This document shows positions 1 through 36,378 of a stretch of DNA of 64,000 nucleotides, one piece after another. The stretch is from positions 16,184,001-16,248,000 of the forward strand of contig CM059432.1 in NCBI GenBank assembly GCA_030390025.1, read 5' to 3'. Made by a program: the position numbers and the translations under genes. The notes below the pieces were generated by a model. That model saw only the letters and a program-made list of their open reading frames with translations. It ran no database searches and was not told the DNA's origin. How positions within the stretch are numbered: the stretch's first letter is position 1; every line of letters begins with the position of its first letter. This DNA is from Squalus acanthias (taxonomy: Eukaryota).

Positions 1-35
1 ACCTCAGGACGTCCCAAAGCGCTTTACAGCCAATT
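1..35 (-). mobile_element. fragment of tRNA-derived Deu-type SINE (cut by window edge)
   Basis: Reverse complement matches ATTGGCTGTAAAGCGCTTTGGGACGTCCTGAGGT, seen in the SINE copies at 32.4, 44.7 and 61.3 kb. Confidence 0.7.
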
Positions 36-350: not shown

Positions 351-1415
351 CTTACATAGACTTACATCGAATTTACAGCAGAGAAACAGGCCATTCAGCC
401 CAAATGGTCCATGCCGATGTTTATGCTCCACACAGGCCTCCTCCCACCCTTACTTCATCTCAGCCTATCAGCATATCCTTCAATTCCTTTATCCCTCATG
501 TAGTTATCTAGCTTCTGCTTAAATGCATCTATGCTATTCGCCTCAACCACTCCATGTGGTCATGAGTTCCACATTCTCACTGCTCTCTGAGTAAAGAGGG
601 TTCTCCTGAATTCCCTATTGGATTTATTAGTGACTACCTATATATATGGCTCCTAGTTTTGGATTCCCGCACAAGTGGAAACATCTTCTCTATGTCTACC
701 CGATCGAACCCCTTCATAATTTTAAAGAATGAGAATGAGAGGGGATCTCATTGAAATGTATAAAATTCTGACAGGGCTAGACAGACTGGATGCAGGGAGG
801 ATGTTTCCCCTGGCTGGGGGGGCTCTAGAACGAGGGGTCACAGTCTCAGGATACGGGGTAGGGCATTTAGGACTGAGATGAGGAGAAATTTCTTCACTCA
901 GAGGGTGGTGAACCTGTGGAATTCTCTACCACAGAAGGCTGTGGAGGCCAAGTCACTAAATATATTTAAGAAGGAGATAGATAGATTTCTAGACACAAAA
1001 GGCATCAAGGGGTATGGGGAGAGAGCGGGAATATGGTATTGAGATAGAGGATCAGCCATGATCATATTGAATGGCGGAGCAGGCTCGAAGGGCCGAATGG
1101 CCGACTCCTGCTCCTATTTTTCTATGTTTCTAAAGACTTCTATCAGGTCACCTCTCAGCCTTCTCTTTTCTAGATAAAAGAGCCTCAGTCTCTTCAGTCT
1201 TTCCTGATAGTTGTACCCCCTCCGTTCTGGTATCAAAACGTTTTGCACTTTCTCCAGTACTTTGACATCCTTTTAATAATCTGCAGACCAGAACTGTGCA
1301 CAGTACTCTAAGTGTGGTCTAATCAAGGTTCTAGTTAAGTTGAACATACAGTCTCTGCTTTTGAATTCTATTCCTCTAGCAATGAACCCCAGTGCTTTGT
1401 TTGCAATTTTTATCT
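351..1415 (-). mobile_element. CR1 LINE 3' fragment, interrupted at 729-1130
   Basis: Minus-strand ORF 1273-1470 gives the CR1 RT C-terminus (IRPHLEYCAQFWS); CR1 3' UTR at 351-480. Confidence 0.85.
729..1130 (+). mobile_element. CR1 LINE 3' end nested in an older antisense CR1
   Basis: RRMRGDLIE/FFTQRVVNLWN-coding sequence, TTTCTATG tail, TAAAGA duplicated at 723-728 and 1131-1136. Confidence 0.9.
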
Positions 1416-1534
1416 TAATTTTAATCAAAAGTAAATTTGAAAATATTAAAATCGTATTGTACCAGTTCATCCTGAGACAGATGCATATAGCATCTACTGC
1501 CGCACAAACCTTCTGCAGAAGCCAATATAACAGA

Positions 1535-1633
1535 ACTGAGTGTGGTTTAAACAGAGTGCTGTGAGTTGGGTGAGTCAGGGAGTCTGGTGAGGAGTGGAAA
1601 GAGGAGCTCCCTTGCTTCGCCTTCGCCTTTGTT
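1535..1633 (+). repeat. shared leader L, copy 1 (others at 12606-12698 and 14613-14705)
   Basis: ACTGAGTGTGGTTTAAACAGAGTGCTG...GGAGCTCCCTTGCTTCGCCTTTGTT is present three times, near-identical. Confidence 0.95.
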
Positions 1634-2704
1634 GGAGAGACACAGGCTGCGAGATTCTCAGCTCAGCTCAGCTCGGTGCTGTGTGAACGGGACTGAGTGC
1701 GGTTTGAAGAGTGCTGAGAAGAGGAGAGGAGAGGAGAGGTCTCTCTCTCTCTGTGCCTAGGAGGAGAAGAAGACAGAGCCACGAAGGGCAGAGTGGAGAC
1801 CCTTTCCACCTCCACCACGCCTGCTGCAGCTATTTCCACAACTACTGCTGAGGTGCCAGAAGGGAGAGGGGAGAGGGGAGAGGAGAGAGAGGAGAGGAGA
1901 CCAACAACAACAACAGAGGGAAGCCATTACATCACTGCCTCCCCAACTGGTCTCCATTACGAGAGAGGGAGAGAGGGGAGAACAAGACTACCATCTGCTT
2001 GGAAGGAGGGAGAGCGAGCCATCAAGAAAAACAACATCTAGAGGTGGGTGTTAAAAAGGGCACTCTCCAAAAGACTTTGTAGTTTAGGTGGGGGGAGGAA
2101 AGAAGAAGGAGAAGACCGGAACAGCAAGGGGAGTGTGTGTGGCTCTTGCTAACAACTAGGCCACACACACCATCAACAAGCACCCCTTGCCTATTGCTTG
2201 ACCTGGGACAGCTGGAGCTGCCCAGGCAAAGTCATCAATCTATTTCCCCAATCTATAACATCGTTAAGACCTGGTAGTGGACTGAGCCTGGGCATCTCCA
2301 GCTTTATTTTCCCAGGTGAAGACATCTTCTCCCCCCACCAGAAGATCAGAAAAAAACCAACAAGGACTATAATTAACATCGGAGAGTGCCCCCCCGTAAG
2401 CACCCACCCACTATCCTGAGTGGCGAACAGGCCCTTGCGGCCTCCCTTCTTCCCACCCGCTCTCTCTCTCTCTCTCTCTCTGCCTCTCTCTCTCTAACAA
2501 GGCACCTTTACCTATTAATTACCCAATTGAGCAGAGGGGAGAAGGCCCCTCTCCCAATTCCAATCATCAAAGGGAGAGGTGTGCCTTCATTTTTAAAACA
2601 ACCCCCTCTTCTCAGGGAAGAGACAAAAACAAACAACCTAGGCCATTTCAACCATCACCCGGCCTGTGACTTGGGGTGGGTGTAGCCCTTTATACCACCT
2701 TATT

Positions 2705-4747
2705 ATGGCGAGCACATCTTCGCCGGCAACGGGGCAAGCAAGGTCGTACGCGGGTGTGGCAGCCACGGCCACAGCCAGTCCCGCTGCTTCTGCTGCCCTG
2801 TCGCCTTTCAGGCTATTGACCAAAAAGCTGGGGGTGAAGAGCTACACTCACCCCAACATGACCATAGAGGCTTGCGTCAAAGCCATGGCTGGGGTAGTCG
2901 GCCCCTCAGCCATCGTAGCAGCCTCTAAAATGTACGGCAAGGCTGTGTTCTTCCTGGGGTCGGAGCGGGCGGTGTCCCTGGCCGTCACGAAGGGGCTCAC
3001 TGTGGGCGGGACCTTCCTGCCGGTGGATCCGCTTGAGGCCACCGCGCAGCGAATCGTCCTTTCAAACATCCCGCCCTTTGTTCCGGGTGAGCTCCTCCTC
3101 CCCCACCTACGTCAACTGGGGGAGGTGAGGTCGGGGATTAATCCGATCCCGCTCGGCTGCAGGGAGGCCAGCCTCCGGTACGTCTTCTCCTTCCGGCGCC
3201 AGCTGTTTATCCAGCTGGTGCGGGAGGAGGACAAAGAAGGCGCGTTGTCGTCCAACACGTGCGGTGCCACGCCTGCAAGGAGGTGGGGCACATAAGAAAG
3301 AACTGCCCCGCCTTCAAGGCCGCCAAAACATCTGAGGCAGCCGAGGCTGGCACCACCGCCGCTTCCCCCCCGTTTCTGTCTGCGCGTCCGCGACACCCGA
3401 TGCGCGGTCAACACCGAAGTCAACGCCGTCGCGGCCTCCGGCAGAGGGGAGGGGGAGCGTCCGATCGGAAGGAAGGCGCGGAGGAAAACTAAACTAAACA
3501 CCTTCAGGTGGGTCCCCTTGACATACAGGATGAGCTACCCGGGCTTACGCCCCCGTACCTTGCGCAGGTGGCGGCGGTGCTCGAGAGTGCGGGAGGTCTC
3601 GTGCCCGGGCCTGCGGCCGCAACTGCCAAGACAGCAAAATCAAGACCTGTGGTTGGGCCCGGGCCCGGGCACGAGAGACCCAAGCAAACCGTTCGACAGG
3701 AGGGAGCGGAGGTGGAGGCCTCGGTACACATGAGGTCTCCCAACCTCCGTGTCCCTTCACACTGAAAAGGAGGCGCAACACCCTGGAGGAGGAGGAGGAC
3801 CGCGAGGAACAGGGTCCCTCCTCGCAAGGGGAGTCGTCGCTCGCCGCGGGTGCTGCGCCCCCCCCCCGCAACCGACACCGACACCATCACTGACATCCGG
3901 CAGGAGTCGCCTGTCCCCCGGGAGGGTACGACAGATGAGTCTGTCCAGCCTGTGCCTCCCGGGGATGGGGAAGAGACCCTGCTCGTGGGGGGGGCCGCGG
4001 AACTACCCGCGGAGGAACTATATATTGAACCATTGTTTCTCGCCAGGTTGGGCGTCCTGGGGACCGGGGCGGGCGAGGCCAATGAGGCTGAGCCCGCCGT
4101 ATACGGTCAAGACTATTCCCAGGTGCTGCTCGACCTGGTTGAGGAATTCAGCCAGGGTCCCCGGTCCGCTGGGTCGGAGGATGGTGGCGGTGAAGGGGAA
4201 GGCCCCCTGACTCCGTCTCCGACGCTGGCGCCGGGGGTGTTGGGGGAACTGGCATTAATGTACTCCCCGGTTTCCCCTGTGCACCCCGGTGCCGGGGGCG
4301 GAGGGGGGCCCCGAGCCTGCCGCCGCTTCCTGGCCCGGCGCCTCTGGAGGAGCCCAGGGAGGACTCCTCTGCCGCTGATCCTGGGGGTGGGATCGGGGCA
4401 GAGGTAGGACCAGCTGATGGCGACCCCCCGAGGAGGAGGACGGGGACCCGGCGGAGGGCACTGAGGATGACATGGACTCCGTCGCCAGCGAGGCGGCGGA
4501 TACCCTCGTGCCCCCCTCCGGGCCCCCCCTCATCCCCGTTGTGGAACTCCGGGACTTTGTGGCCATGGGCCAGGGTCGCCAGGATATAATCCGGCTGGCC
4601 ATCGATAAATGGTCGATCTGGCGCTGCTCGTTTGCTCCGTCCGCGCCGCCGTCAAAACCATGGGCGCGACGGGGGCATGGGCCCGGCCGAGCGGCATCGG
4701 ATCCGGAAGTTCCTGGCTGGGCTGAGAAGGGAGTGGCGGTCGACTAG
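2705..4747 (+). pseudogene. Tx1 ORF1 (gag-like nucleic-acid-binding protein), frameshifted
   Basis: IVAASKMYGKAVFFL and IVLSNIPPFVP motifs, CHACKEVGHIRKNC knuckle in another frame at ~3262, low-complexity C-terminal half split over frames. Confidence 0.8.
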
Positions 4748-4803
4748 CGGCTGCGCTCCCTCCTCCCGTTAGGGTTAGGTAGAGGTTGCACTATGCTCTT
4801 GTC

Positions 4804-7800
4804 ATGAAGATAACCATAGCCAGCCTCAACATCAACGGCAGCAAAGAGGCACGCCGTAGATTTAATAACTTCACGGTCCTTCGGGAAGGGAGGCATGCAG
4901 TGTGCTTCCTGCAGGAAACTCACACCGTTCCGGGAGACGAGGCCATGTGGCTCCTGGAGTGGCGAGGAGGGGTCAACATGAGTCATTTCTCCAACATTTC
5001 CGGCGGGGTGGCTATCTTGCTGGCCCCGCATTTTCAGCCGCAGATCTTGGGGGTCAAGGAGCATGTGCCGGGCCGCTTGCTCCAGGTCACTGTTCGCCTG
5101 GGGGGCATGCCGCTCCATTTAGTGAACGTGTAGGCCCCCCAGGCCGGTGGCCAGCAAGTGCGCTTCTTCGAAGAAGTGTCCGCTCTTCTGGGCTCCATCG
5201 ACGTCGGCGAGTGTGTCATCCTCGGGGGGGATTTCAATTGTACCCTCGAGGCGAGGGACCGTTCGGGTCCTCCGCGAAGCCTGGCGGCGATGGTGAAGTT
5301 AAGGGACCTGGTCGGGTCCTTCGACTTGGTGGACGTCTGGCGAAATCTCCATCCCGACTCCAGCGCCTTCACTTGGGTGGGGTCTGGAGGAGGAAGGTCC
5401 AGAATCGACCGCCTTTATATTTCCCGGGCGTACGTCTCCTGCGTTCCGGCGGCTTCCATGCGGCCGGTACCGTGCACGGACCACCACCTGGTGTGGGCGG
5501 AGCTCGCTCCGTTGCACGCGCCGGGGGGGTCCGCGTACTGGCATTTTAACAACCTGCTGCTGGAGGACGAGTGGTTCCGGGATTCGTTTCGCCGGTTCTG
5601 GGCCGACTGGAGAAGGAAGCAGGGGGGGCTTCCCCTCCTTGAGGCGATGGTGGGACGTGGGCAAGGCTCACGTCCGTCTCTTCTGTCAAGAGTACACGAG
5701 GGGGTCGACCAAGAGGCGGGAGGCCCGGGTCGGGCGGTTGGAGAGGGAGGTGCTTGACCTGGAGTCCCGTCTCGGTCAGGTCGTCGAAGACCCGGCCCTG
5801 CGGAAGGTGTACGAAGAGAAGGGCGCGCTGAAGGACCTGCAGCTGGTCGGGTCCCGAGGCGCGTACGTGAGGTCGCGAATCCAGTTCCTGCGGGACCTGG
5901 ACCGCGGCTCCCCCTTCTTCTACTCGCTGGAAAAAAAAGACGGGGGGTCCGTGAGCAGCTCTTGGGGCTGCTGGCCGACGACGGATCTCTGGTCTCGGAT
6001 TCGGAGGGGATCAGCGCGGAGGCCCGGGCCTATTACGGGGCTCTGTTCTCTCCGGATCTGTCCAGTGAGGATGCGCGCAGAGCTTTGTGGAAGAACTTGT
6101 TGAAGGTCGGCCCGGAGGGCGCCGAAAAATTGGACGCTCCGCTAAGCTTGGCGGAGCTGACTGGCGCTCTCGGCCAGCTCTCGAGGGGAAAGTCCCCGGG
6201 GCTGGACGGGCTGACCGTAGAGTTCCACAGGGCGTTCTGGGACGTCTTGGGGGGCAACTACGCGCGGGTCCTGGGGGAAAGTCTGGCGACCGGGGAGATG
6301 CCCCTCTCTTGGCGCAGGGCGGTCATCGTCCTGCTGCCCAAGAAGGGCGATCGCCGCCTCTTAAAAAACTGGCGCCCGGTCTCCCTCCTCAGCACGGACT
6401 ATAACATTTTTGCCAGGGCCATGTCTGCGCGCCTTGGCTCCGTGCTGGCCTACATGATCCACCCCGACCAGTCCTACACGGTCCCGGGCCGGTCCATCCA
6501 TGACAACATCCATCTGGTCCGGGACCTGGTCCACCTTTCCCAGAGGGCTGGATCAGGAGAAGGCGTTCGACAGGGTGGATCATGAGTATCTTTTCGGAAC
6601 TCTGCGCGCATTCGGGTTCGGGACGCACTTTGTCGCCCGGATCCGACTTCTGTATGCCTGCCGCGGAGTGTCTGATTAAAGTTAACGGGTCTTTGACGGC
6701 GCCCCTTCGCTTCGGGAGAGGGGTACGTCAGGGATGCCCCATGTCCGGTCAGTTATACGCCGTTTGCGTGGAGCCTTTCCTGCGCCTCTTGCGGAAGAGT
6801 TTGATGGGACTGGCTCTGCAAGGGCCGGGCGTGGAGGTCGTCCTCTCGGCTTACGCCGATGACGTGCTCCTCATGGTCACGGATCCCGTCGACTTGCGGA
6901 GGATGCGAGAATGCCAGCAGATTTACTCGGACGCATCCTCCGCCAGGATCAACTGGGAGAAATGTTCTGGACTCCTGGTGGGCCAGTGGCGGGTGGACTC
7001 CCTGCCGGAAGAGTTCAGGCCCTTCGCCTGGAACACAACGCACCTCCTCTACTTGGGAGTCTACCTTGGCCCTGCTGAGGACACCTGGCCGGCGAACTGG
7101 CAAGAGCTGGAGGCCAAAGTCACCGCTCGCCTAGGACGTTGGACGGGGTTGCTCCGAGTGTTGTCCTACAGGGGTCGAGCGCTGGTCATAAACCAGCTGG
7201 TGGCCGCCATGTTGTGGTACCGGTTGGTCACTTTGATCCTTCCCTCTGCATTTGTCGCCAAGATACAGAAGAAGCTGATCGACTTCTTCTGGGACAAAAG
7301 GAAGCACTGGGTCTCTGCTGCGGTTCTGTGTCTCCCGCTTAGGGAGGGCGGTCAGGCGCTGTTGTGCCTTCGCACCCAGGCGGCGACTTTCCGCCTTCAG
7401 ACGCTGCAGAGATACCATTACGTCGAGAATCCTCCCAGATGGTGTGCGCTGGCGACATATTTCTTCCGTCAGATGCACGGCCTCAACTACGACACGCAGC
7501 TCCTGTTTGTGGAATTGGGCCGCACGCGAGCCTACCTGTGGGAGCTGCCTGTCTTCTACCAGGAAGTGCTATGGGTCTGGAACCAAGTCACCTCCAGGCA
7601 GAGTTCTCCCCCGTCAGGAGTGGCGGCTCTCCTTCGGGAGCCGCTGCTCAGTAATCCGCACCTCCACGTCCGACAGATCGGGTGGCTGGCGGAGGGCAGG
7701 GCTGTGCCTGGCAAGGTGACCAGAGTCGGGGACCTGCTCGATGGCGGAGGAGCGGGCTGGATGGCGTCGGAGGAGTTGGCGCGGCGCCTCTCCTGGGTCG

Positions 7801-8678
7801 ACGTCTGGCGCGCGGCCAAAGCCATCGAGTCGCTGAAAGTGGCCCTGGGCCCCGACTCCACTAGGTGTATCAAGGAGGCTCAAGCACATGGGGCGATCCC
7901 GTCCGAACTGACCCCCGTTCGGACGGAATTCCTCATTGGCGCGCGGCCCCGAAACCCCTCTCGGGAACAGGCGCCTCACAACTTGAGCCATCTCGGGGAA
8001 ATGCCCTCCGTGCCTTTTAGTTCTCCACGGAGGTGTTTCCTGTACTGGCTGCTCCTGCACACTCTCCACTTTGCCATCTTCGCCTGCCGTCCGGACACGC
8101 CTTGGCAGGCCACCTTGCCGTCCGGCGGAGGCGAAGGTCCCCAATGGAGGGCTCTCTACGCAGGAGTCCTCCCCTTTTCTACTGGGGACTAGGCCTGGAG
8201 GGTGTTGCACGGAGCAATCCCGTGCAATCAGCTTTTAAGTAGGTTCACGGACTCCCAGGCCGCCTGTCTTTTTTGCGGCCTCGAGGAGTCCGTGTTCCAC
8301 GTGTATGTACAATGTGAGAGGTTGCAGCCCCTCTTTCAATATTTGAAGGGGCTGCTCCTTGCTTTTTGGTTGCACTTCAGTCCCACGCTCCTGATCTACA
8401 GTCACCCAGTGCGGAGGGGAGAGGGCAGGTCGGAGGACCTCCTCGTAGGACTGCTCCTGGGCCTGGCCAAAGTGGCCATTAACAGGTCCAGGCAGCGGGC
8501 GGTCGAGGGGGTCGGTCGGCCCAATTGCCTGCCTCTCTTCCGCGGCTATGTTCGCGCCCGGGTGGCTCTGGAGATGGAGCACGCGATGTCCGCCGGCACA
8601 CTTGAAGCCTTCCGAGACCGGTGGGCGCCGCAGGGACTGGAGTGCATCGTCTCCCTGGGCAATGTTATTTTAATTTAA
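4804..8678 (+). pseudogene. Tx1 ORF2 (AP endonuclease, reverse transcriptase, zinc motif) with stops and frameshifts
   Basis: SLNING, FLQETH, GGDFN, SRIDRLY, TDHH; KSPGLDG, WRPVSLL, GVRQGCPMS, YADD, YLGV; CLFCGLEESVFHVYVQC; stops at 5131 and 8190, shifts near 5635, 5940 and 6550. Confidence 0.92.
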
Positions 8679-8743
8679 TGGGATAAGTTTCATTTGAAGT
8701 TTTGTTAATTTGCAGTCGTTTTATGTTGACTCAAAAAAAAGAG

Positions 8744-8877
8744 TACAAGGCCTACAATTCAGAGCAGCTGAGGCAGTTAATTAGGGGAACTAGATTAAAC
8801 TGGTTCTCCTGTAGCAGGGCAGGGCCGAGCAAGCTCCTTTGTTTCAGGGCCGATAAAAACAGGCTTTGAAGTGCGAT
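8744..8877 (+). promoter_or_regulatory. module P copy 1 (TATA altered to GATAAAAA; separated from its Inr by a CR1 insertion)
   Basis: Near-identical to 14473-14607; continues at 12601 after the inserted CR1. Confidence 0.75.
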
Positions 8878-8976
8878 CATAGAATCATAGAATCATAGAA
8901 GATAGGAGCAGGAGTAGGCCATTCGGCCCCTCTAGCCTGCTCGCCATTCAATGCGATCATGGCTGATCATCCAAAT

Positions 8977-10626
8977 TCAGTACCCTGTCCCTGCTTTCTC
9001 CCCATATCCCTTGATCCCTATAGCCTTAAGAAATATATCCAACTCCTTCTTGAATCTATTTAATGAATTGGCCTCTACTGCCTTCTGTGGCAGAGAATTC
9101 CACAGGTTCACCACTCTCTGGGTGAAGAAATTCCTCCTCATTTCTGTCCTAAATGGTTTACCCCTTATCCTTAGACTGTGACCCCTGGTTCTGGACTCCC
9201 CGACCATCGGGAACACCCTTCCTGCATCTAGTTTGTCCTGTCCTGTCAGAATTTTATAAGTTTCAATGAGATCGCCTCTCATTCTTCTAAACTCCAGCGA
9301 GTATAAGCCCAATCGACCCAATCTCTCTTCATACGTCATTCCTGCCATCCCAGGTATCAGCCTTGTGAATCTTCGCTGAACTCCTTCCATGGCAAGAACA
9401 TCCTTCCTCAGATAAGGCGACCAAAACTGCACACAGTACTCAAGGTGTGGTCTCACCAAGGCCCTGTACAACTGCAGCAAGACATCCTTGTTCCTGTACT
9501 CAAACCCTCTCGCTATGAAGGCCAACATACCATTTGCCTTCTTAACCACCTGCTGCACCTGCATGCTTACCTTCAGTGACTGGTGCACAAGGACACCCAG
9601 CTCTCGTTGCACTTCCCCTTCTCCCAATCTATTGCCATTCAGATAATAATCTGCCTTCCTGTTTTTGACACCAAAGTGGATAACCTCGCATTTATCCATG
9701 TTATATTGCATCTGCCATGCTTCTGCCCAATCACCCAACCTGTCCAAATCATCCTGGAGTTTCTCGGCATCCTCCTCGCAGCACACACGCCCACCCAGCT
9801 TTGTGTTGTCTGCAAACTTGGAGATATTACATCTAGTTCCCTTGTCTAGGTCATTAATATATATTGTGAATAGCTGGGGTCCAAGGACCGATCCCTGCGG
9901 TACCCCACTAGTCACTGCCTGCCACTCGGAAAAAGACTCGTTTATTCGAACTCTTTGCTTTCTGTCTGCCAACCAGTTCTCTATCCAAGTCAATACCTTG
10001 CCCCCAATCCCATGTGCCTTAACTTTACACGCTAATCTCTTATGCGGGACCTTATCAAAAGCCTTTTGGAAGTCCAAATACACCACATCCACTGGTTCTC
10101 CCTTATCTATTTTACCAGTTACATCCTCAAAAAATTCCAGTAGATTAGTCAGGCATGATTTACCTTTTGTAAATCCATGTTGACTTTGTCCGATCCTGTC
10201 ACTGTTTTCCAAGTGCTCAGCTATTACATCTTTTATAATGGACTCTAGCATTTTCCCCACTACCGATGTCAGGCTTACCGGTCTGTAATTCCCCGTTTTC
10301 TCTCTACCACCCTTTTTGAATAGTGGGGTAACATTAGCTACCCTCCAATCCATGGGTACAGTTCCAGATTCCATCGAATGTTGGAAGATGATCAGCAATG
10401 CATCTACTATTTCTAGGGCCACTTCCTTAAGTACCCTAGGATGTAGATTATCAGGCCCTGGGGATTTATCGGCCTTCAATCCCTTCAATTTCCCTAACAC
10501 CATTTCCCTACAAATACTGATTTCTTTCAGTTCCTCCCTTTCATCAGACCCTATGTTCCCCAACATCTCTGGGAGGTTATTTGTGTCCTCCTTTGTGAAG
10601 ACAGAACCAAAATATGTATTTAATTG
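8977..10626 (-). CDS. CR1 ORF2 RT portion (open frame; catalytic FADD reads FADN)
   Basis: KSPGPD, NYRPVSLTS, YLDFQKAFDKVPH, GVPQGSVLGP, SKFADNTK. Confidence 0.85.
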   Translation of the reverse strand, partial: QLNTYFGSVFTKEDTNNLPEMLGNIGSDEREELKEISICREMVLGKLKGLKADKSPGPDNLHPRVLKEVALEIVDALLIIFQHSMESGTVPMDWRVANVTPLFKKGGREKTGNYRPVSLTSVVGKMLESIIKDVIAEHLENSDRIGQSQHGFTKGKSCLTNLLEFFEDVTGKIDKGEPVDVVYLDFQKAFDKVPHKRLACKVKAHGIGGKVLTWIENWLADRKQRVRINESFSEWQAVTSGVPQGSVLGPQLFTIYINDLDKGTRCNISKFADNTKLGGRVCCEEDAEKLQDDLDRLGDWAEAWQMQYNMDKCEVIHFGVKNRKADYYLNGNRLGEGEVQRELGVLVHQSLKVSMQVQQVVKKANGMLAFIARGFEYRNKDVLLQLYRALVRPHLEYCVQFWSPYLRKDVLAMEGVQRRFTRLIPGMAGMTYEERLGRLGLYSLEFRRMRGDLIETYKILTGQDKLDAGRVFPMVGESRTRGHSLRIRGKPFRTEMRRNFFTQRVVNLWNSLPQKAVEANSLNRFKKELDIFLKAIGIKGYGEKAGTGY

Positions 10627-10627
10627 T

Positions 10628-11761
10628 GGATATGTGGAACACTCTTTGTTCCAGTCCTACTCGGGTCCCCTCCCTCACCTCTTTTTCCGGTACATTGACG
10701 ACTGTATCGGTGCCGTTTCCTGCTCTCGCCCTGAACTAGACAATTTCATTCACTTTGCCTCCAATTTCCACCCTTCCCTCACCTTCACATGGTCCATCTC
10801 CGACTCTTCCCTCCCCTTCCTCGACTTCTCCGTCTCCATCTCTGGGGATAGGTTATTGACCAACATTTACTACAAGCCCACTGACTCCCACAGCTACCTG
10901 GACTACACTTCCTCCCACCCCGCCTCCTGTAAGGACTCTATTCCCTTCTCCCAGTTTCTCCGTCTCCGCCGCATCTGCTCCGACGATGCCACCTTCCATA
11001 CCAGTGCTTCCGACATGTCTTCCTTTTTCCTCAACCGAGGATTCCCCTCTACCGTGGTCAACACGGCCCTCGACCGTGTCCGTTCCATCTCCCGCACTTC
11101 TGCCCTCACCCCGGCCCCTCCCTCCCGGAACCACGATAGAGTTCCCCTTGTCCTCACCTTTCACCCCACCAGCCTCCACATTCAACGGATCATCCTCCGC
11201 CATTTCCGCCACCTCCAACGTGATCCCACCACCAAACGTATCTTCCCCTCACCTCCCCTTTCAGCATTCCGTAGGGACCGCTCCCTCCGAGACACCCTAG
11301 TCCACTCCTCTATCACCCCCAGCACCCCTTCCCCTTCACCCGGCACCTTCCCGTGCAAGCGCAGGAGATGCAACACCTGCCCTTATACATCCCCCCTTCC
11401 CACTCTCCAGGGCCCCAAACACCCCTTCCAGGTGAAACAGCGATTTACTTGTACTTCTTGCAATCTAGTATACTGTATTCGCTGCTCACGATGTGGTCTC
11501 CTCTACATTGGGGAGACCAAACGCAGACTGGGTGACCGCTTTGCGGAACACCTCCGTTCAGTCCGGAAGGGTGACCCCGAGCTTCCGGTCGCTTGTCATT
11601 TTAATTCACCCCTCCACGCTCACTCAGACCTCACCGTCCTCGGCCTCTTGCATTGTTCCACGGAAGCGCAGCGTAAGCTCCAGGAACAGCACCTCATCTT
11701 CCGTTTAGGCACTTTACAGCCTTCCGGACTCAATATCGAGTTCAACAATTTCAGATCATAA
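10628..11761 (+). CDS. Penelope RT C-terminal half, Cys linker and GIY-YIG endonuclease (open frame)
   Basis: RYIDD, LPFLD, YYKPTD, CKRRRCNTC, LVYCIRCSRCGLLYIGET, RFAEH, LQPSGLN. Confidence 0.9.
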   Translation, partial: GYVEHSLFQSYSGPLPHLFFRYIDDCIGAVSCSRPELDNFIHFASNFHPSLTFTWSISDSSLPFLDFSVSISGDRLLTNIYYKPTDSHSYLDYTSSHPASCKDSIPFSQFLRLRRICSDDATFHTSASDMSSFFLNRGFPSTVVNTALDRVRSISRTSALTPAPPSRNHDRVPLVLTFHPTSLHIQRIILRHFRHLQRDPTTKRIFPSPPLSAFRRDRSLRDTLVHSSITPSTPSPSPGTFPCKRRRCNTCPYTSPLPTLQGPKHPFQVKQRFTCTSCNLVYCIRCSRCGLLYIGETKRRLGDRFAEHLRSVRKGDPELPVACHFNSPLHAHSDLTVLGLLHCSTEAQRKLQEQHLIFRLGTLQPSGLNIEFNNFRS

Positions 11762-12030
11762 CCCCGGCCCCTACCACATATGTACACATTTTATCCACTC
11801 TTTTGGTCCGTGCCTTTTTCCTTTTTTTCTCTCTCTCCCCCCACGGCAGCTGTCTCTGATTCTGCCAGCATTTCACACCTTACCTTTTGTTTCTCAACCT
11901 GTCCCATTACCATCTCGTCTTGCCTTGAGCATCTCTCAATGTCTCTACTCACTAAAGACCATCCCATTTGTTCTTTTATTCCTCCCCCCAGCCTCCCCCT
12001 TGCATTTTTATCTGTTTATTTCTTGCTCTC

Positions 12031-12072
12031 TCAGTTCCGACGAAGGGTTTCAACCTGAAACGTTAACTCTGT
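12031..12072 (+). ncRNA. minimal hammerhead-ribozyme-like motif of the Penelope 3' region
   Basis: AGTT-CCGACGA-AGG...CCT-GAAA-CGTT-AACT: core variant of CUGANGA plus GAAA, short stem II, palindromic AACGTT stem III. Confidence 0.6.
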
Positions 12073-12605
12073 TTCTCTCTCCACGGATGTTGCCTCGCCT
12101 GCTGAGTTTTTCCAGCGTTTTCTGTTGTTATTTCGGATTTCCAGCATCCGCAGTATTTTGCTATCGTATATGTATTTAATTGGTCTGCCATTTCTTTGTT
12201 CCCCATTATAAGTTCCCCTGATTCTGACTGCAAGGGACCTATGCTTGATTTCACTAATCTTTTTCTCTTCACATATCTATAAAAGCTTTTACAGTCATTT
12301 TTTATGTTCCCTGCAAGCTTACTCTCGTATTCTATTTTCCCCTTCTTAATTAATCCATTTGTCCTCCTTTGTTGAATCTTAAACTGCTCCCAATCCTCAG
12401 GGTTACTGCTTTTTCTGGCCAATTTATATGCCCTCTCCTTGGATCTTATGCTATCCCTAATTTCCCTTGTTAGCCACGGTTGAGTCACCCTTTTTGTTTT
12501 ATTCTTATGCCAAACTGGGATGAACAAATTCTGTAGCTCGTCCATGCGGTCTTTAATGTTTGCCATTGCCTATTTCGGGTTTTAGCACAAGCGCAGCGAT
12601 TTTGC

Positions 12606-12698
12606 ACTGAGTGCAGTTTAAACAGAGTGCTGTGAGTTGGGTGATTCAGGGAGTTAGTTGAGGAGTGGAAGGAGGAGCTCCCTTGCTTCGCCTTTGTT
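12606..12698 (+). repeat. shared leader L, copy 2
   Basis: Near-identical to 1535-1633 and 14613-14705. Confidence 0.95.
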
Positions 12699-14472
12699 GG
12701 AGAGACACAGGCTGCGAGATTCTCAGCTCAGCTCAGCTCGGTGCTGTGTGAACGGGTGAGCAAGCATACCCAAGCTGCTTGCGGGGAATGCTAGTGGGAA
12801 GGCTGTGAGATTCTCGGCTCAGCTTGGTGCTGTGTGAATGGGCTGTTCCACACCCCGGCTGCTCGTGGGGAATGCCAGTGCGGAGGGCCCAGTGCAGAAG
12901 GTCCAGGGTGGAAGACCCAGAGGAGAGTGGCCTAGGCGGGAGGCCCAGCATGGAGAACCCCAGGTGGGGGGCCCAGGGTGAAGCGGCTGGTCGGCAGAGG
13001 TGGAGTCGGGAGATGCTGTGGGTGAGCATGCTGCACTGGTTCTAAAAGTTGAAGAATGGTCTCGGGCCGGGATGAGTTCCAGCGGCCCCGTATGTGCTCC
13101 GTCTGGTGGCAGCTGTGAGGCTTTTCTCGGTGACGGGATCGGGTTTGTGCGCTGCCATTTTGGTGGAGGAAAGACAAACTGTTTCCATCTGTAGCATGGC
13201 GCGTGAGCAGGTCACAAGATGGGAAATGTGAACGGTTAAAAGTGGGGGAAAAAAGGAAAAATAAAAGGAAGATAAAAGACAAAACAAAGTAATATCGGTA
13301 AGGAATAATGAGTATTTTTTGATGACTGGGTCCTGTGAGCAATAACAGCAAGTAGAAGAAAATCTGAGTTTTCGGTCTTTTTTACGGGATTGAGAAAGTG
13401 GATGGTTTCTTTTCCGTGGAAAAGCTGAAGACTGTGGACAAGGACTATGACATCACATGGTTCGACAGACATCAAGTGAAAACGAGGAGTTATTAAATTG
13501 CCAATAGGACTGGCGTAGAACTGGTATTTACTTGTTTTGTTGAAAAAAGTTTCAGGTTTTCTGGTTGAAAGCAGTCTACTTGAGCTTTAATTGATTTTTG
13601 ATAAGGTGATGGGATTTTGCACATTGTGTTGTTAATTAGTGTTTATGTAGAATTTGCTTTGAGATTATTGTCTAGCAAATGGTATGAATTTATATTGGTA
13701 AGAAATTTATGGCTGGCTTTCGGGGGGGGGAAATTTCCTTAATGAACGAACTATTGAACGGACGGACGCTTGAGTGAACGAACGAACGAACGATCGAACG
13801 AACGCACGCATGCACATTGGAACTTACGCTCGATCGAACGAACAATCGTTTGGCTAGCGATTGAACGAACGAATGAGTGAACGCACACACTTAGACAAAT
13901 GGTACGCACGCACGCATACATATTGGAACTTACACTCGATCGAACGAACGGTCGTTGGCCTCTGAACGAACGAACGAGCGAACGAACGCACGCATGCACG
14001 CACTTAGACAAACGGTAGCACACGCACGCACATTGGAACTTACGCTCGATCGAACGAATGAACGAACGCTCGAGTGAACGAACGAACGATTGAACGAACG
14101 ATCGAATGAACGATTGAATGAACAAACGATGCCAGTAGGACTGGCGTAAAATGGGTAGTAGTATATTTGTAGCATTTAATTGAATTATGATGGTGCTATG
14201 TGATTTGTACACTGAGGTGTTAAACTGTTTTCTTTTATGTGGAGTTTACCTTGAGATTTATTGTTTTAAATCTACAAAGTTTGTGTGAGATTATTTAAGG
14301 GTATTTGTATTGTAAACTTTGTTGATTTATTTGTAAAATTTTATTAATGTATTTATATTGTTAATCGTAAAGCTGTTTTTAAGGCTTTATTGTTTATTGT
14401 GATCAATGAATGTAATGGTCTACTATGTAATTGATGAGTTGTGTAAGTACTATTGTACTTGAATAAAAGATT
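12699..14472 (+). mobile_element. unclassified non-coding element X (putative non-autonomous partner of the Tx1)
   Basis: First 58 bp identical to the Tx1 start (1634-1691), no credible ORF, T-rich tail with AATAAA at 14462 directly before P2. Confidence 0.6.
13740..14128 (+). repeat. (GAAC)n/(GCAC)n compound repeat with a ~110-120 bp higher-order unit
   Basis: CATTGGAACTTACGCTCGATCGAACGAA recurs three times (~13814, ~13921, ~14031) among GAAC runs. Confidence 0.85.
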
Positions 14473-14615
14473 TACAAGGCCTACAATTCAGAGCAGCTGA
14501 AGGCAGTTAATTAGGGGAACTAGATTAAACTGGTTCTCCTGTAGCAGGGCAGGGCCAAGCAAGCTCCTTTGTTTCAGGGCCTATAAAAACAGGCTTTGAA
14601 GTGCGATTTTGCACT
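14473..14615 (+). promoter_or_regulatory. module P copy 2: candidate Pol II core promoter (TATA and Inr)
   Basis: TATAAAAA at 14582, 31 nt upstream of the A (14613) of TGCACT (BBCABW Inr consensus); that A is the first base of leader L. Confidence 0.7.
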
Positions 14616-14987
14616 GAGTGTGGTTTAAACAGAGTGCTGCGAGTTGGGTGAGTCAGGGAGTCAGGTGAGGAATGGAAGGAGGAGCTCCCTTGCTTCGCCT
14701 TTGTTTTTCCTAACTTTTCACCCTGTAGGAATTGGTTCTTACTTTACACCAAGGAAAGAGTCCGAGAGCGGGAGCAGTCAAACAACAACAACTGCGAAAC
14801 CGCTAAAGTGACGTCACAACCAGGGAAGGAGCTGATTGGTAAGTAGGACCTGGTGAGTATTTCTACAGTCCAGTCGTTAAAGTAAAAGTAAGGTCTCTAG
14901 TTTAGAGTAAGTAGTGTTTAAAGGGAAGTAAGGTCCCTAGTGTATTTAATATTCTTTAATTTAAAGGGAGTAAATTAAGGGTAGGAC

Positions 14988-16001
14988 ATGGCAGGGCAGC
15001 TCGGCTGCGTGGAGTGCTCCTCCTGTGCTATGTGGGAAGTCAGGGACACATTAGGTGTCCAGGGCGAACACATGTGCAGGAAGTGTCTCCAGCTACAGCT
15101 ACTCGAAATCCGCGTTTCAGAACTGGAGCTGTGGCTGGAGTCACTGTGGAGCATCCGCGAAGCTGAGATCTTCGTGGATAGCACGTTTAACGAGGTGGTC
15201 ACACCGCAGGTAAAGAGTGCACAGGCAGACAGGAAATGGGTGACCGCCAGACAGAGTAAAAGAACTAGGAAGGTAGTGCAGGAGTCCCCTGGGTCCATTT
15301 CCCTCTCCGACAGATTTTCCGTTTTGGATACTGCTGGGGGAGATGGTTTCTCAGGGGAATGCAGCAAGAGCCAAGTCCGTGGCACTACAAGTGGCTCAGC
15401 TGCACAGGAGGGGAGGAAAAAGATTGGGAGAGCAATAGTGATAGGGGATTCTATTGTAAGGGGAACAGATAGACGTTTCTGTGGCCGCAGACGTGACTCC
15501 AGGATGGTATGTTGCCTCCCTGGTGCCAGGGTCAAGGATGTCACTGAACGGCTGCAGGGCATTCTGAAGGGGGAGGGCGAACAGTCAGAGGTCGTGGTTC
15601 ACATTGGTACCAACGACATGGGTAGAAAGAGGGATGAGGTCCTGCAACAAGAATTTAGGGAGCTAGGTAGCAGATTAAAAAGCAGGACCTCAAAGGTTGT
15701 AATCTCTGGATTACTCCCGGTGCCACGTGCTAGTGAGTATAGGAATAGGAGGATAGAGCAGATGAATGCGTGGCTAAAGAGTTGGTGCAGGAGGGAGGGC
15801 TTTAGTTTCCTGGATCACTGGGCCTGCTTCTGGGGGAGGTGGGACCTGTACAAGTCGGACGGGTTGCACCTGAACCGGAACGGGACCAACATCCTTGCGG
15901 GGAGGTTTGCTAGTACTGTTGGGGGGGGGTTTAAACTAACTTGGCAGGGGGCTGGAATACGGAGTGGAGCTATAGTAGGGGTGATACACAGCCAAATATA
16001 G
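14988..16001 (+). CDS. CR1 ORF1: zinc finger/leucine zipper and SGNH (GDSL) esterase domain, 337 aa
   Basis: CVECSSC...HMCRKC, heptad leucines, IGDSIVRG, HIGTND, DGLHLN. Confidence 0.9.
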   Translation: MAGQLGCVECSSCAMWEVRDTLGVQGEHMCRKCLQLQLLEIRVSELELWLESLWSIREAEIFVDSTFNEVVTPQVKSAQADRKWVTARQSKRTRKVVQESPGSISLSDRFSVLDTAGGDGFSGECSKSQVRGTTSGSAAQEGRKKIGRAIVIGDSIVRGTDRRFCGRRRDSRMVCCLPGARVKDVTERLQGILKGEGEQSEVVVHIGTNDMGRKRDEVLQQEFRELGSRLKSRTSKVVISGLLPVPRASEYRNRRIEQMNAWLKSWCRREGFSFLDHWACFWGRWDLYKSDGLHLNRNGTNILAGRFASTVGGGFKLTWQGAGIRSGAIVGVIHSQI

Positions 16002-16042
16002 AGGAAAAAACAAGTCAGCCTGGAAGGAAGAGCAAATATGTA

Positions 16043-18866
16043 ATGGCACAAGGGAGTATGGCAAGGCTGGATGGCATTTATTTTAATGCAAGGAGTCTTG
16101 CGAGTAAGGCAGATGAATTGAAGGTGTTGATGAACACATGGGAGTATGATATTGTTGCTATCATAGAGACATGGTTGAGGGAGGGGCAGGACTGGCAGCT
16201 CAATATTCCGGGGTATAGAATCTTCAGGCGAGACAGAGGGGGGTGTAAAAGAGGAGGGGGTGTCGCAATATTAATCAAGGAGTCAATTACTGCTGTAAGG
16301 AGGAATGATATCTTAGCAGGTTCCTCTAATGAGGCCATATGGGTAGAACTTAAAAACAAAAAGGGGGCAAGCACTTTGCTGGGAGTGTACTATAGGCCCC
16401 CAAACAGTCAGGGGGAGATAGAGTGACAGATATGTCGGCAAATCTCAGAGAAGTGTAGAAATAATAGGGTAATAATAGTAGGGGATTTCAACTTCCCCAA
16501 TATTAATTGGGATAGTCAGAGTGTGAAAGGCTTGGAGGGTGCGGAATTCTTAAAGTGCATCCAGGAGAGCTTTTTGAGCCAGCATGTAGAAAGTCCTACA
16601 AGAGAGGGGCGGTACTGGACCTAATTCTAGGGAATGTAGGGCAAGTGGTAGAAGTGTCAGTAAGAGAGCATTTTGGTGACACTGACCATAATTCGGTGAG
16701 ATTTAAGGTAGTCATGGAAAAGGAAAAAGGTGGACCAGAAATAAAGGTTCTAAATTGGGGGAAGGTCGATTTTAATATGATAAGGCAGGATCTGGCCAAA
16801 GTGGACTGGGATCAGCTACTTGCAGGAAAGTCCAAATCAGAGCAATGGGAGTCTTTCAGAAAGGAAATAGAGAGAGTACAATGCCAACATGTTCCCGTAA
16901 AGGTCAAGGGTGGGACCAACAAACCCAGGGAACCCTGGATGTCAAGGGATATACAAGAATGGATTAGGGGAAAAAAGGGAGGCTTTTGGCAGATACAAAG
17001 GACTAAAAACAGTGGAAGCCCTAGAGGAGTATAGAAAGTGCAGGGGGGTACTTAAAAAAGAAATTAGAGAGCAAAGAGGGGGCATGAAAAAACACTAGCG
17101 GGTAAAATAAAGGAAAATCCCAAGGTGTTATATAAGTATATTAAGGGCAAGAGGATAACCAGGGAAAGAGTAGGGTCCATTAGGGACCAAAGTTGCAATC
17201 TGTGTGTAGAGCCAGAAGATGTAGGTGAGGTGTTAAATGAATATTTTGCATCTGTGTTCACTCTGGAGAAGGACGATGTAGGCATAGAAATCAGGCAGGG
17301 GGATTGTGATATACTTGAACAAATTAGTATTGAGAGGGAGGAGGTACTAGTGGTTTTAGCAGGCTTAAAAGTGGATAAATCCCCAGGCCCTGACGAGATG
17401 TATCCCAGGCTGCCGTGTGAGGCAAGGGAGGAGATTGCAGGGGTTCTGACACAAATTTTCAGAACCACTCTGGCCACAGGGGAGGTGCCAGAGGACTGGA
17501 GAACAGCTAACGTAGTACCATTATTCAAGAAGGGTAGTAGGGATAAACCAGGGAATTACAGGCCAGTGAGCCTAACATCAGTGGTAGGGAAATTATTGGA
17601 AAAAATTCTGAGGGACAGAATTAGTCTCCACTTGGAGAGGCAAGGATTAATCAAGGATAGTCAGCATGGCTTTGTCAGGGGGAGATCATGTCTAACCAAT
17701 TTGATTGAATTTTTCGAGGGGGTGACTAGGTGTGTGGATGAGGGTAGTGTAGTTGATGTAGTCTACATGGACTTCAGTAAGGCTTTTGACAAAGTCCCAA
17801 ATGGGAGACTGGTCAAGAAGGTAAGAGCCCATGAGATCCAGGGCAAATTGGCTCATTGGATCCAAAATTGGCTTAGTGGCAGGAGGCAGAGGGTGGTGGT
17901 CGAAGGTTGTTTTTGTGACTGGAAGCCTGTGTCCAGTGGTGTACCGCAGGGACCGGTGCTGGGTCCTTTGTTGTTTGTAGTGTACATTAATGTTTTAGAT
18001 ATGAATGTAGGAGGTATGATCAGTAAGTTCGCAGATGACACGAAAATTGGTGGAGTGGTAAATAGCAAGGAGGGAAGCCTCAGGCTACAGGACGATATAG
18101 ACGGGTTGGTTAGATGGGCAGAACAGTGGCAAATGGAATTTAACCCTGAAAAATGTGAAGTGATGTATTTTGGGAGGACTAACAAGGCAAGGAAATATAC
18201 AATGAATGGTAGGACCCTAGGAAGGACAGAGGATCAAAGGGACCTTGGTGTGCATGTACATAGATCCCTGAAGGCAGCAGGACAGGTAGATAAGGTGGTT
18301 AAAAAGGCATATGGGATACTTGCCTTCATTAGCCGAGGCATAGAATATAAGAGCAGGGAGGTTATGATGGAGCTGTACAAAACGCTAGTTAGGCCACAGC
18401 TGGAATACTGTGTGCAGTACTGGTCACCACACTATAGGAAGGATGTGATTGCATTGGAGAGGGTGCAGAGGAGATTCACCAGGATGTTACCTGGGCTGGA
18501 GCGCTTCAGATATGAAGAGAGACGGGACAGGCTGGGGTTGTTTTCCTTAGAGCAGAGAAGGCTGAGGGGAGACCTGATTGAGGTGTACAAAATTATGAGG
18601 GGCATAGATAGGGTAGATAGAAAGGAACTTTTCCCCTTAGTAGAGGGTTCAATAACCAGGGGGCATAGTTTCAAGGTAAGGGGCAGGAGGTTTAGAGGGA
18701 TTTGAGGAAAGACTTTTTCACCCAGAGGGTGGTTGGAATCTGGAACTCACTGCCTGAAAGGGTGGTAGAGGCAGGAACCCTCACAACATTCAAGAAGCAT
18801 TTAGATGAGCACTTGAAACGCCATAGCATACAAGGCTACGGACCAAGTGCTGGAAAATGGGATTAG
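16043..18866 (+). pseudogene. CR1 ORF2 (APE and RT), disrupted
   Basis: YFNARSL, ETWL, GGGVA, YYRPP, TDHN, FADD; stop at 16424 and frameshifts near 16600, 16970, 17070 and 18700. Confidence 0.92.
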
Positions 18867-19113
18867 AATAGACAGGGCTTGATGGCCAGCGCGGACACGA
18901 TGGGCCGAAGGGCCTCTTTCTGTGCTGTATAACTCTATGACTCTATGAGAACTGCAGCATGGTTTGCAAAACTATTTCAGGATCTGAGTCCACCCATAAA
19001 CTCCCTGCTCAGATAGTCTGCATTTTAAATAGTTTCCCCAGTTTGTTGCTTGCGTTGGTGTTTGATGCAGACTCACTTGTCTCTGCTCATGCTTGTAGAA
19101 CTCCTCCTCATCC

Positions 19114-33915: not shown

Positions 33916-36378
33916 GGGGGGAGTCTTAACCCTCAAGAACGGTTGGATTGGGGCGGGTGGGAAGTAGCAATTTAAAAAATCTCAAACCCCACCCCCACCC
34001 CACCTCCAACCCGCCCACTTCTGGTTTTAACGGAGGTGGGTCGCCGGGCAGGCGACCGATTCGCTCACACGAGGCGGGTCTGTCAGTAAAATCTTTTAAG
34101 GAGGCGGCGTGCCTCCATTTTAACAGCATTTCTATTTTTATCTCATGGAGGCCGGGATTCCCGGGGCTTGGGAAACCCGGCAAATTAAAGGAGGCGAGAA
34201 GGGCTGGATCCATGAGGTGAGTGCGTTTACAGCACTGCTTGTGGGCCAAGAGGAGCAGAAGTGTTTCCTCCAGGCCCAACCAGCTTTATCGCTTTACAGA
34301 CCCCACGATCAGCTAAACCTCCCCCCACCCACAATCACCGACTCTCCCCACCCCCCCCGATCACCAACTCTCCCCTCACCCCCCCGCCGATCACCAACTC
34401 TCCCCTCACACTCCCCGATCACCAACTCTCCCCTCACACTGCCCCGATCACCAACTCTCCCCTCACACTCCCCGATCACCAACTCTCCCCTCACACTGCC
34501 CCGATCACCAACTCTCCCCTCACACTCCCCCGATCACCAACTCTCCCCTCACACTGCCCCGATCACCACCTCTCCCCTCACACCCCCCCGATCACCAACT
34601 CTCCCCTCACACTGCCCCGATCACCACCTCTCCCCTCACACCCCCCCCGATCACCAACTCTCCCCTCACACTGCCCCAATCACCAACTCTCCCCTCACAC
34701 TCCCCCGATCACCAACTCTCCCCTCACACTGCCCCGATCACCAACTCTCCCCTCACACCCCCCCGATCACCAACTCTCCCCTCACACTCCCCCGATCACC
34801 AACTCTCCCCTCACCCCCCGCCGATCACCAACTCTCCCCTCACACTTCCCCGATCACCAACTCTCCCCTCACACTGCCCCGATCACCAACTCTCCCCTCA
34901 CACTTCCCCGATCACCAACTCTCCCCTCACACCCCCCCCGATCACCAACTCTCCCCTCACACTGCCCCGATCACCAACTCTCCCCTCACACCCACCCCCC
35001 CAATCACCAACTCTCCCCTCACACCCCCCCGATCACCAACTCTCCCCTCACACTCCCCCGATCACCAACTCTCCCCTCCCACCCCCCCGATCACCAACTC
35101 TCCCCTCACACTCCCCCCGATCACCAACTCTCCCCTCACACTCCCCCGATCACCAACTCTCCCCTCACACTCCCCCCGATCACCAACTCTCCCCTCACAC
35201 TCCCCCCATCACCAACTCTCCCCTCACACCCCCCCGATCACCAACTCTCCCCTCACACTCCTCCGATCACCAACTCTCCCCTCCCACCCCCCCGATCACC
35301 AACTCTCCCCTCACACTCCCCCGATCACCAACTCTTCCCTCACACTCCCCCGATCACCAACTCTCCCCTCACACTGCCCCGATCACCAACTCTCCCCTTA
35401 CACTGCCCCGATCACCAGCTCTCCCCTCACACTGCCCCGATCACCAACTCTCCCCTCACACTCCTCCGATCACCAACTCTCCCCTCCCACCCCCCCAATC
35501 ACCAACTCTCCCCTCACACTCCCCCGATCACCAACTCTCCCCTCACACTCCCCCGATCACCAACTCTCCCCTCACACTCCCCCCATCACCAACTCTCCCC
35601 TCACACCCCCCCGATCACCAACTCTCCCCTCACACTCCCCCCGATCACCAACTCTCCCCTCACACTCCCCCCATCACCAACTCTCCCCTCACACCCCCCC
35701 GATCACCAACTCTCCCCTCACACTCCTCCGATCACCAACTCTCCCCTCCCACCCCCCCCCGATCACCAACTCTCCCCTCACACTCCCCCGATCACCAACT
35801 CTCCCCTCACACTCCCCCGATCACCAACTCTCCCCTCACACTGCCCCGATCACCAACTCTCCCCTTACACTGCCCCGATCACCAACTCTCCCCTCACACT
35901 GCCCCGATCACCAACTCTCCCCTCACACTCCCCCCGATCACCAACTCTCCCCTCACACTCCCCCCGATCACCAACTCTCCCCTCACACTCCCCCGATCAC
36001 CAACTCTCCCCTCACACGCCCCACCCGATCACCAACTCTCCCCTCACATTCCCGATCTCCAACTGAAGAGTCCAACTTCGATCTCTCCCTCCGCACGGTC
36101 TCCACCCTGCCCCGCGATCTTCCCTCCTCCCCCCCCACCGCAATCTCTCACCCCCTCCCTCCCTCCCTCCTCTCCTCTCCGCTCCCCGGCTGCGGCCTTG
36201 TGCCGCAGGCATTCCTGCCCGACCAGCAGCCAGCCTGTCAATCAGGGCTGACTGTCTTGCTGGAATCCTGCTGTAAAAATTTAAAGGACTTCCTGCTGTT
36301 AATTTTGGCAGGACGTCTGGGAAACCTGTACATCTTCCTCATCGCTCTCTTCACGGCCCCCGAATAAATAACGGGGCC
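33916..36378. mobile_element. non-autonomous DNA transposon with expanded internal minisatellite
   Basis: GAT flanks both ends; the left part is the reverse-complement homologue of 42350-42709 and 46900-47158; the right end resembles the reverse complement of 41149 GGCCCCGATA. Confidence 0.7.
34358..36058. repeat. ~29-bp C-rich minisatellite GATCACCAACTCTCCCCTCACACT(G/C)CCCC, roughly 55-60 copies
   Basis: Directly visible tandem array, unit 27-33 bp. Confidence 0.98.

Follow-up and report, generated by a model that had tools for sequence, protein, structure and literature searches.

The 64-kb window (the whole stretch of Squalus acanthias DNA that was analysed) contains a 17.4-kb chain of plus-strand units. 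From its octamer-type tail and a 7-bp target-site duplication (left copy 1532..1538, right copy 18948..18954 by sequence comparison) we read the chain as one LINE-type insertion. Random pairs of 20-nt windows have 7 or more nucleotides in common in 1.2% of trials. The chain begins with the outermost copy of a leader, L1, which together with its extension spans 1535..1691 and has no promoter block (P) upstream; the last 4 nt of the left duplication overlap the start of L1 as microhomology. Directly behind it L', a diverged leader start at 1692..1718, heads a broken L1/Tx1-type LINE (1692..8743) with a short A-run at its 3' end. ORF1 of this LINE starts at 2705 and has relatives with a zinc knuckle, and its ORF2 (4804-8678) comprises pieces of APE endonuclease, reverse transcriptase (RT) and zf-RVT. 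Its ORF features suggest Tx1 rather than L1. The extension of leader L1 stops (1686-1700) about where that of leader L2 (12751-12762) has a donor-like CGG/GTGAGC, and L' then begins; this boundary may stem from splicing or from a template jump onto a first exon that had been cut.

The Tx1-type element is followed by P1, the first internal promoter block (8744..8877). A later CR1 insertion on the minus strand (8878..12595), with GCGAT duplicated at its ends, parts the TATA position of P1 from the L2 initiator by 3.7 kb (8873-8877 / 12596-12600). A Penelope-like piece lies within this nested CR1 (about 10630-12170, plus strand); its GIY-YIG match is weak (E 6e-4) and falls short of the Pfam cut-off. 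The end of P1, with the initiator context, and L2 with its extension (59% GC) occupy 12596..12756 and lead into unit X (12757..14472). Next come the second promoter block P2 (14473..14612), the 35-nt exon 1 of leader L3 (14613..14647, from read contigs), an 81-nt intron (14648..14728) and a CR1 LINE body (14729..18947). One leader type heads the CR1, the L1/Tx1-type LINE and the unit with a decayed PHPT1 piece, and the Tx1-type element and unit X have A-rich ends at the identical point before P.

The CR1 body consists of the rest of the 5' UTR, an esterase ORF1 from 14988, a broken APE-RT ORF2 and the octamer-type tail. A Pfam scan detected Lipase_GDSL_2, Exo_endo_phos and RVT_1. Esterase ORF1, APE and RT, combined with a short-repeat 3' tail and a short target duplication, fit the CR1 clade, and we presume it to be of the shark type. 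The end of its ORF1 (about 15925-15940) has a T-TTA-AAC plus stop motif. An esterase ORF1 is typical of vertebrate CR1 according to a 2026 survey of vertebrate CR1-group elements.

Unit X has a GC-rich start, a PHPT1-like piece, an (AACG)n repeat and an AT-rich tail ending in AATAAA (14462). The PHPT1-like piece (13329..13466, plus strand) corresponds to the decayed C-terminal 46 codons of the 14 kDa phosphohistidine phosphatase of the Ocnus family, with 54% identity and 2 in-frame stops. Ocnus proteins account for 5 of 6 library matches, and the bit scores of 38-48 compare with at most 28 in 200 shuffles. The top library match, P0015, was set aside as a 3,357-aa repetitive protein aligned in 6 stretches. 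In the PDB the top 3 of 4 matches were PHPT1 (E 0.005-0.007), while a Pfam scan of the piece and a word-indexed search with 42 aa of unit X returned no match. Once the PHPT1 match was found, we dropped two earlier ideas, namely that unit X is the internal region of an LTR element or a non-autonomous Tx1 tail. The AATAAA at 14462 may be the PHPT1 mRNA's own signal. Unit X also contains a YY1-like core at 13154, and similar short stretches flank its (AACG)n repeat (13500-13525 and 14131-14155). By eye only, a possible weak N-terminal PHPT1 trace runs from an ATG near 13197. Besides P, flanks of other sequence follow the 3' end of unit X in sequencing run X16.

Core promoter motifs and the spliced leader

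P2 carries the TATA motif TATAAAAA at 14582-14589, 31 nt 5' of an A at 14613, the putative start. This A lies in an initiator-like TGCACT (14610..14615) that matches BBCABW, so that both motifs stand where the first-pass annotation had placed them. A TATAWAWR site about 30 nt 5' of BBCABW constitutes a TATA-Inr core promoter of RNA polymerase II by the usual definition. Taken alone, the motif pair is weak evidence against chance; BBCABW lies at +28..33 behind 4 of the 35 TATAWAWR sites on both strands of the window. The repetition of the leader is beyond chance, with 4 matches of a degenerate L pattern in the window against 0 in 100 shuffles. As also described before, P1 has GATAAAAA at the TATA position; besides this variant it differs from P2 by 1 substitution and 1 gap (97.8% identity). 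Sensitive BLAST located P or L only at 1535, 8744, 12596 and 14465, with none near 18950 or elsewhere in the window. Poly(A) signals occur at -151 (AATAAA, 14462) and -89 (ATTAAA, 14524) and none within L, and the CpG ratio of L3 is low (0.38).

We aligned contigs from 4 of 24 listed sequencing runs to 14140-15340. X1 is a DNA run that may be the window's own source, X16 and X17 are RNA by our guess, and the raw-read run X21 gave 2 aligned reads, both within ORF1. The CR1 leader intron has GT..AG ends, a GTGAGT donor, a branch-like CCTAAC and a TGTAG acceptor, and its splice joint (14646 to 14728, cut +1) is present in both X1 and X17. In X17 the joint has a depth of 21 versus 16.5 for the unspliced form (56% of local depth), whereas in X1 it has 50.9 versus about 16,000-67,000 (at most 0.3%). 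This enrichment fits X17 being RNA, itself a guess. GGTGAGT is a splice donor in actual use, and its spliced form in DNA points to splicing and reverse transcription of RNA containing L.

An AP-1-like TGAGTCA at 14649 had been described as overlapping the donor-like GGTGAGT at 14647. The overlap is there, but the AP-1 reading is unnecessary, because the donor in use accounts for 5 of the 7 letters and the motif is missing from L2; TGAGTCA is probably a by-product of the donor. CA follows GTGAGT at 2 of 33 such sites in the window, both of them L copies. Further donor-like sites in the CR1 leader are GGTAAGT at 14839 and GGTGAGT at 14853. At 14852 one X17 contig departs from the reference and continues for 255 letters unrelated to it, which may be a leader spliced into host sequence.

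The promoter block in sequencing runs and the position of the start

P, L and CR1 are adjacent in two organisms, with P-L and L-CR1 contigs present in the second. The stretch, whole or in part, occurs in 20 runs from 9 studies (3 of these aligned). The TATA-to-L pattern was not found in metagenome contigs, nor was the L pattern in viral contigs, and of 326 pattern matches to the N-terminus of CR1 ORF1 in metagenome contigs 0 were confirmed.

The first-pass annotation had named a TATA that is not the consensus across P copies as a result that would speak against it, pointing to the variant in P1. In the contigs G at 14582 is not among the differences of at least 5% in X1 or X17; the check covers changes to G, and a C or A at 14582 could sit among 72 further differences. 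X1 and X17 have one T>G place each, and X16 has a second. As the sole place in X1 and X17 is 14228, the GATA of P1 is not a 5% allele in these runs; it is not a common allele. In X1 the single-position depth is 12,000-14,500 at 14597-14613 versus 1,300-3,100 at 14533-14564. A variant of P with a 55-nt deletion (14523-14577; X1 depth 1,938 in 6 contigs, found in X17 too) stops 4 nt before TATA, which it spares, and removes the ATTAAA at 14524.

The block also occurs in tandem and in transcript-like context. Low-depth back-joints in X1 lead from L into P (14662 to 14465, 14641 to 14511 and 14648 to 14586; depth 59-73). P1 and P2 share one X1 allele at 2% of depth, and leaders L1 and L3 share some at 6% and 10%; these shared minority alleles make the cassettes of the chain close kin. 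In the RNA-like X17, P is present at a depth of about 100 and continues as read-through into a leader of the L' type, which stands directly behind P in one contig.

Concerning the start itself, contigs do not reveal transcript starts, and run depths are not copy numbers. The outermost leader had been said to begin at the very base of the proposed initiator with no P upstream. P is indeed absent, but the start is fixed only to 1535-1539, because the first 4 bases (ACTG) also end the target duplication; the junction at 1535 could be a microhomology-guided truncation. L', a fourth leader start that the first-pass annotation overlooked, has the +1 A as its first base. Among 8 listed X1 contigs out of 4,362, two reach +1: one continues from P through +1 (89% alike), and the alignment of the other starts precisely at 14613, preceded by 24 letters that do not align. 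In total, all 3 P-less junctions seen, two in the window and one in a contig, fall at +1 or within 4 nt, a handful rather than a distribution, with 4,572 pieces and 293 loose ends beyond those listed. The other result named beforehand as refuting, 5' ends that do not cluster at the start, was therefore not encountered among these junctions. Speaking against a sharp start, binned X1 depth ramps from P through L into the leader (21k, 39k, 59k, 80k, 93k, 146k, 320k) with no step at +1, and single-position depth is noisy (42k at 14621, 16k at 14662, 67k at 14672). In X17 and X16 the depth over P is at least that over exon 1. The +1 A is replaced by C in 0.1% of X1 depth. The proposed TATA-Inr core promoter starting at about 14613 finds support in junctions, conservation and splicing, all of them indirect. 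Overall, there is probably a real TATA-Inr promoter upstream, with a leader that is spliced; it is stacked in tandem, common to unlike units and not an LTR.

Readings of the repeated block

The first-pass annotation labelled P+L a U3-R unit that solves the loss of an upstream promoter in an LTR-like way. We compared the block with the features of retroviral and Ty3/Gypsy U3-R-U5 regions as given in the available text of PMC3601003. As in these LTRs, a repeated block holds a TATA 5' of the start. In contrast to them, the block has no terminal position, as the 3' end has no repeat of L, and no TG..CA ends at the start of P and the end of L. It also has no AATAAA downstream of TATA, since the signal sits upstream of P, and no polypurine tract, as purine runs before P2 reach at most 6 nt and the 11-nt run before P1 is an A-run. 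No integrase domain was found in the 15 ORFs scanned. The outer unit has no P, and therefore a new copy does not restore the promoter at its 5' end. The label fails on these points; what finds support in the wider claim is the idea that internal copies of P survive retrotransposition, though not in the manner of an LTR. Rather than R, L represents exon 1 together with the intron. By inspection, nothing evident as a primer-binding site follows L or its extension; a stretch starting with TGG was noticed by eye near 13197.

We lean towards reading P+L as a tandem promoter cassette, not an LTR, that donates promoters to downstream units, one being used per round. A single block with TATA, an initiator-like site and a spliced 35-nt first exon fronts three different units of one insertion. 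The reading draws on these motifs, the splice joint, the adjacency of P, L and CR1 in two organisms, the low-depth back-joints, the LINE-type ends and the P-less outer end. RNA polymerase II would initiate in an upstream cassette, on its +1 A, and frequently pass weak poly(A) sites to reach the CR1 tail, and the CR1 reverse transcriptase would copy this long RNA by target-primed reverse transcription. The new copy would lose the P that drove it and retain all downstream P, so that it could still launch a shorter chain. Because the driving P is lost, each round would consume one cassette. The stack would be topped up only by separate events, either a renewed tandem duplication of P-L or the insertion of sequences at the A-rich point before P. 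Inserted poly(A)-type sequences, such as the Tx1-type LINE and the PHPT1 mRNA piece, would come under the promoter of the previous cassette. A broader proposal is less probable, namely that a vertebrate CR1 lineage has dispensed with the internal-promoter rule and maintains a self-renewing stack of TATA, Inr and intron. The junctions between its cassettes would serve as landing sites at which a Tx1-type LINE and host mRNAs are captured; driven by the CR1 promoter, they would travel through the genome in a single chain of several kilobases. Such a stack would amount to 'promoting in tandem' in a vertebrate and across clades, and at the same time to a vehicle for gene capture.

Four other explanations compete with the cassette. 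That P+L is a true U3-R unit regenerated each round in LTR fashion would account for the TATA upstream of the start, the repeated leader, the P in RNA-like contigs and a CA with a GT-rich stretch downstream of a TATA resembling a poly(A) variant; TATAAA and GATAAA are poly(A)-signal variants too. Against it, the 3' end of the insertion has neither P nor L, the outer unit lacks P, and the LTR hallmarks are missing (TG..CA ends, a purine run above 6 nt before P2, an AATAAA other than that at -151, an integrase domain in the 15 ORFs), whereas a LINE tail and a target duplication are present. We accord this reading very little probability and consider it largely refuted here. An internal TATA-less promoter in the leader, with the initiator and downstream elements setting +1 and P a helpful or passive passenger, is unlikely. 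It predicts a start at +1 equally well, explains persistence without cassette renewal, could use the YY1-like core and the GC-rich L2 extension, and is usual for most LINEs (in the parts available of PMC1636488 and PMC2881922). Nevertheless, the extension is missing from L3-CR1, L3 is CpG-poor, and the TATA-Inr end of P is deep while mid-P varies, with the common deletion sparing TATA.

P could also be the 5' end of the transposing RNA, with a second start near 14465-14474, template jumps adding the upstream units and the TATA start making only mRNA. Unit X, the end of the Tx1-type element, L itself and a 145-nt X17 flank all join at 14465-14474, P occurs in RNA-like contigs, and in TART the major start lies well inside the 5' UTR (PMC1636488, in excerpt). 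Yet both the insertion, at its outer limit, and the Tx1-type element, at its head, begin with L rather than P, no TATA-like motif is visible by eye upstream of 14470, and an A-rich endonuclease target explains the recurrent junction equally, so we judge a second start improbable. Capture of a host or source-locus promoter with its first exon, followed by a burst from one or few master loci without a self-sustaining cycle, would be comparable to the SVA-MAST2 or RAP1GDS1-L1 bursts of 5'-extended copies. Such capture suits the cellular PHPT1 piece and poly(A) signal within the chain, and promoter co-option is known (bioRxiv 10.1101/2025.02.02.635956 and PMC4494074, both in excerpt). This account is quite improbable given that contigs joining P, L and CR1 occur both at 89% identity and in a second organism, that the stretch or part of it is spread over the 20 runs of 9 studies (3 of these aligned), and that leader variants head different bodies.

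Likeness to known systems and further features of the window

By anatomy, the tandem cassette may work most like Drosophila HeT-A. In HeT-A, transcription begins in one element and continues through the next (Danilevskaya et al. 1997, as cited in the excerpt of PMC1636488). HeT-A and TART resemble the chain in that a non-LTR element is driven from a neighbouring upstream unit and the read-through RNA is the template, and the authors draw a comparison with LTRs (PMC1636488, same excerpt). The chain has a promoter upstream in the neighbouring unit that is lost from the outermost unit, as seen in its anatomy, with a corresponding function presumed. However, the HeT-A promoter resides in the element's own 3' end, with arrays renewed by telomere-directed insertion (excerpt of PMC1636488). 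The CR1 3' end has neither P nor L, and so no counterpart of a 3' promoter with terminally redundant RNA. The units here are heterologous and the site is non-telomeric.

The pseudo-LTR of Penelope is similar in that a partial tandem provides the start site and the 5' UTR holds an intron of 75 bp (81 here), but there the 3' part of the element itself serves as pLTR, its promoter is called internal, and a GIY-YIG/PLE enzyme stands in place of the APE-RT of CR1 (available text of PMC8557442). In mouse and rat L1, monomers at the 5' end of this vertebrate LINE are likewise promoter units in tandem; they are CpG-rich and directly adjacent, whereas TATA-Inr, low CpG, an intron and kilobases of foreign sequence between the blocks characterize the chain (excerpt of PMC5381506). 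Since P does not form the 3' end of its own element, the chain belongs to none of the HeT-A, Penelope and mouse L1 classes.

Some Tx1 families insert into other transposons, and transcription of SINEU from flanks has been proposed; here the host would be a CR1 promoter stack, with one Tx1-type copy seen before P, and a target-specific Tx1 family is one in which >20% of copies share the flanking target (PMC4494074, in the part available). L1 SpIREs show splicing in a LINE 5' UTR and spliced copies in DNA as well (PMC5860796, in excerpt), and promoter co-option chimeras place LINEs carrying mRNA pieces under an outside promoter (bioRxiv 10.1101/2025.02.02.635956, in excerpt). In these excerpts both are rare, mostly dead-end and confined to single loci, in contrast to an arrangement that appears multi-copy and in two organisms.

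Replacement of LINE promoters is frequent (PMC2881922, in excerpt). Little has been written on the promoters of vertebrate CR1; the word 'promoter' is absent from the main text of the 2026 survey. In the open literature we found no description of a TATA-Inr tandem cassette in shark CR1, though Repbase, subscription papers or supplements may hold one. The principle of tandem promoters is already known from HeT-A, Penelope and mouse L1, and the locus extends it. As a case for testing it is sharp: a single base is predicted as the start, a single TATA precedes it, the splice joint is visible in contigs, and the leader is common to two LINE types and a host gene fragment. Should the stack be self-renewing, a TATA promoter placed upstream can maintain a vertebrate LINE that has no LTR.

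As to RNA genes, 3 sub-threshold Rfam matches to miRNAs were taken as chance, and ARAGORN predicted 0 tRNAs. A tandem array at 34297-36064 is built of about 58-bp units with strong C skew and long open frames. On the minus strand, 54570-56743 holds a 5'-truncated CR1 copy, itself interrupted, that is 97% identical to 17516-18942.
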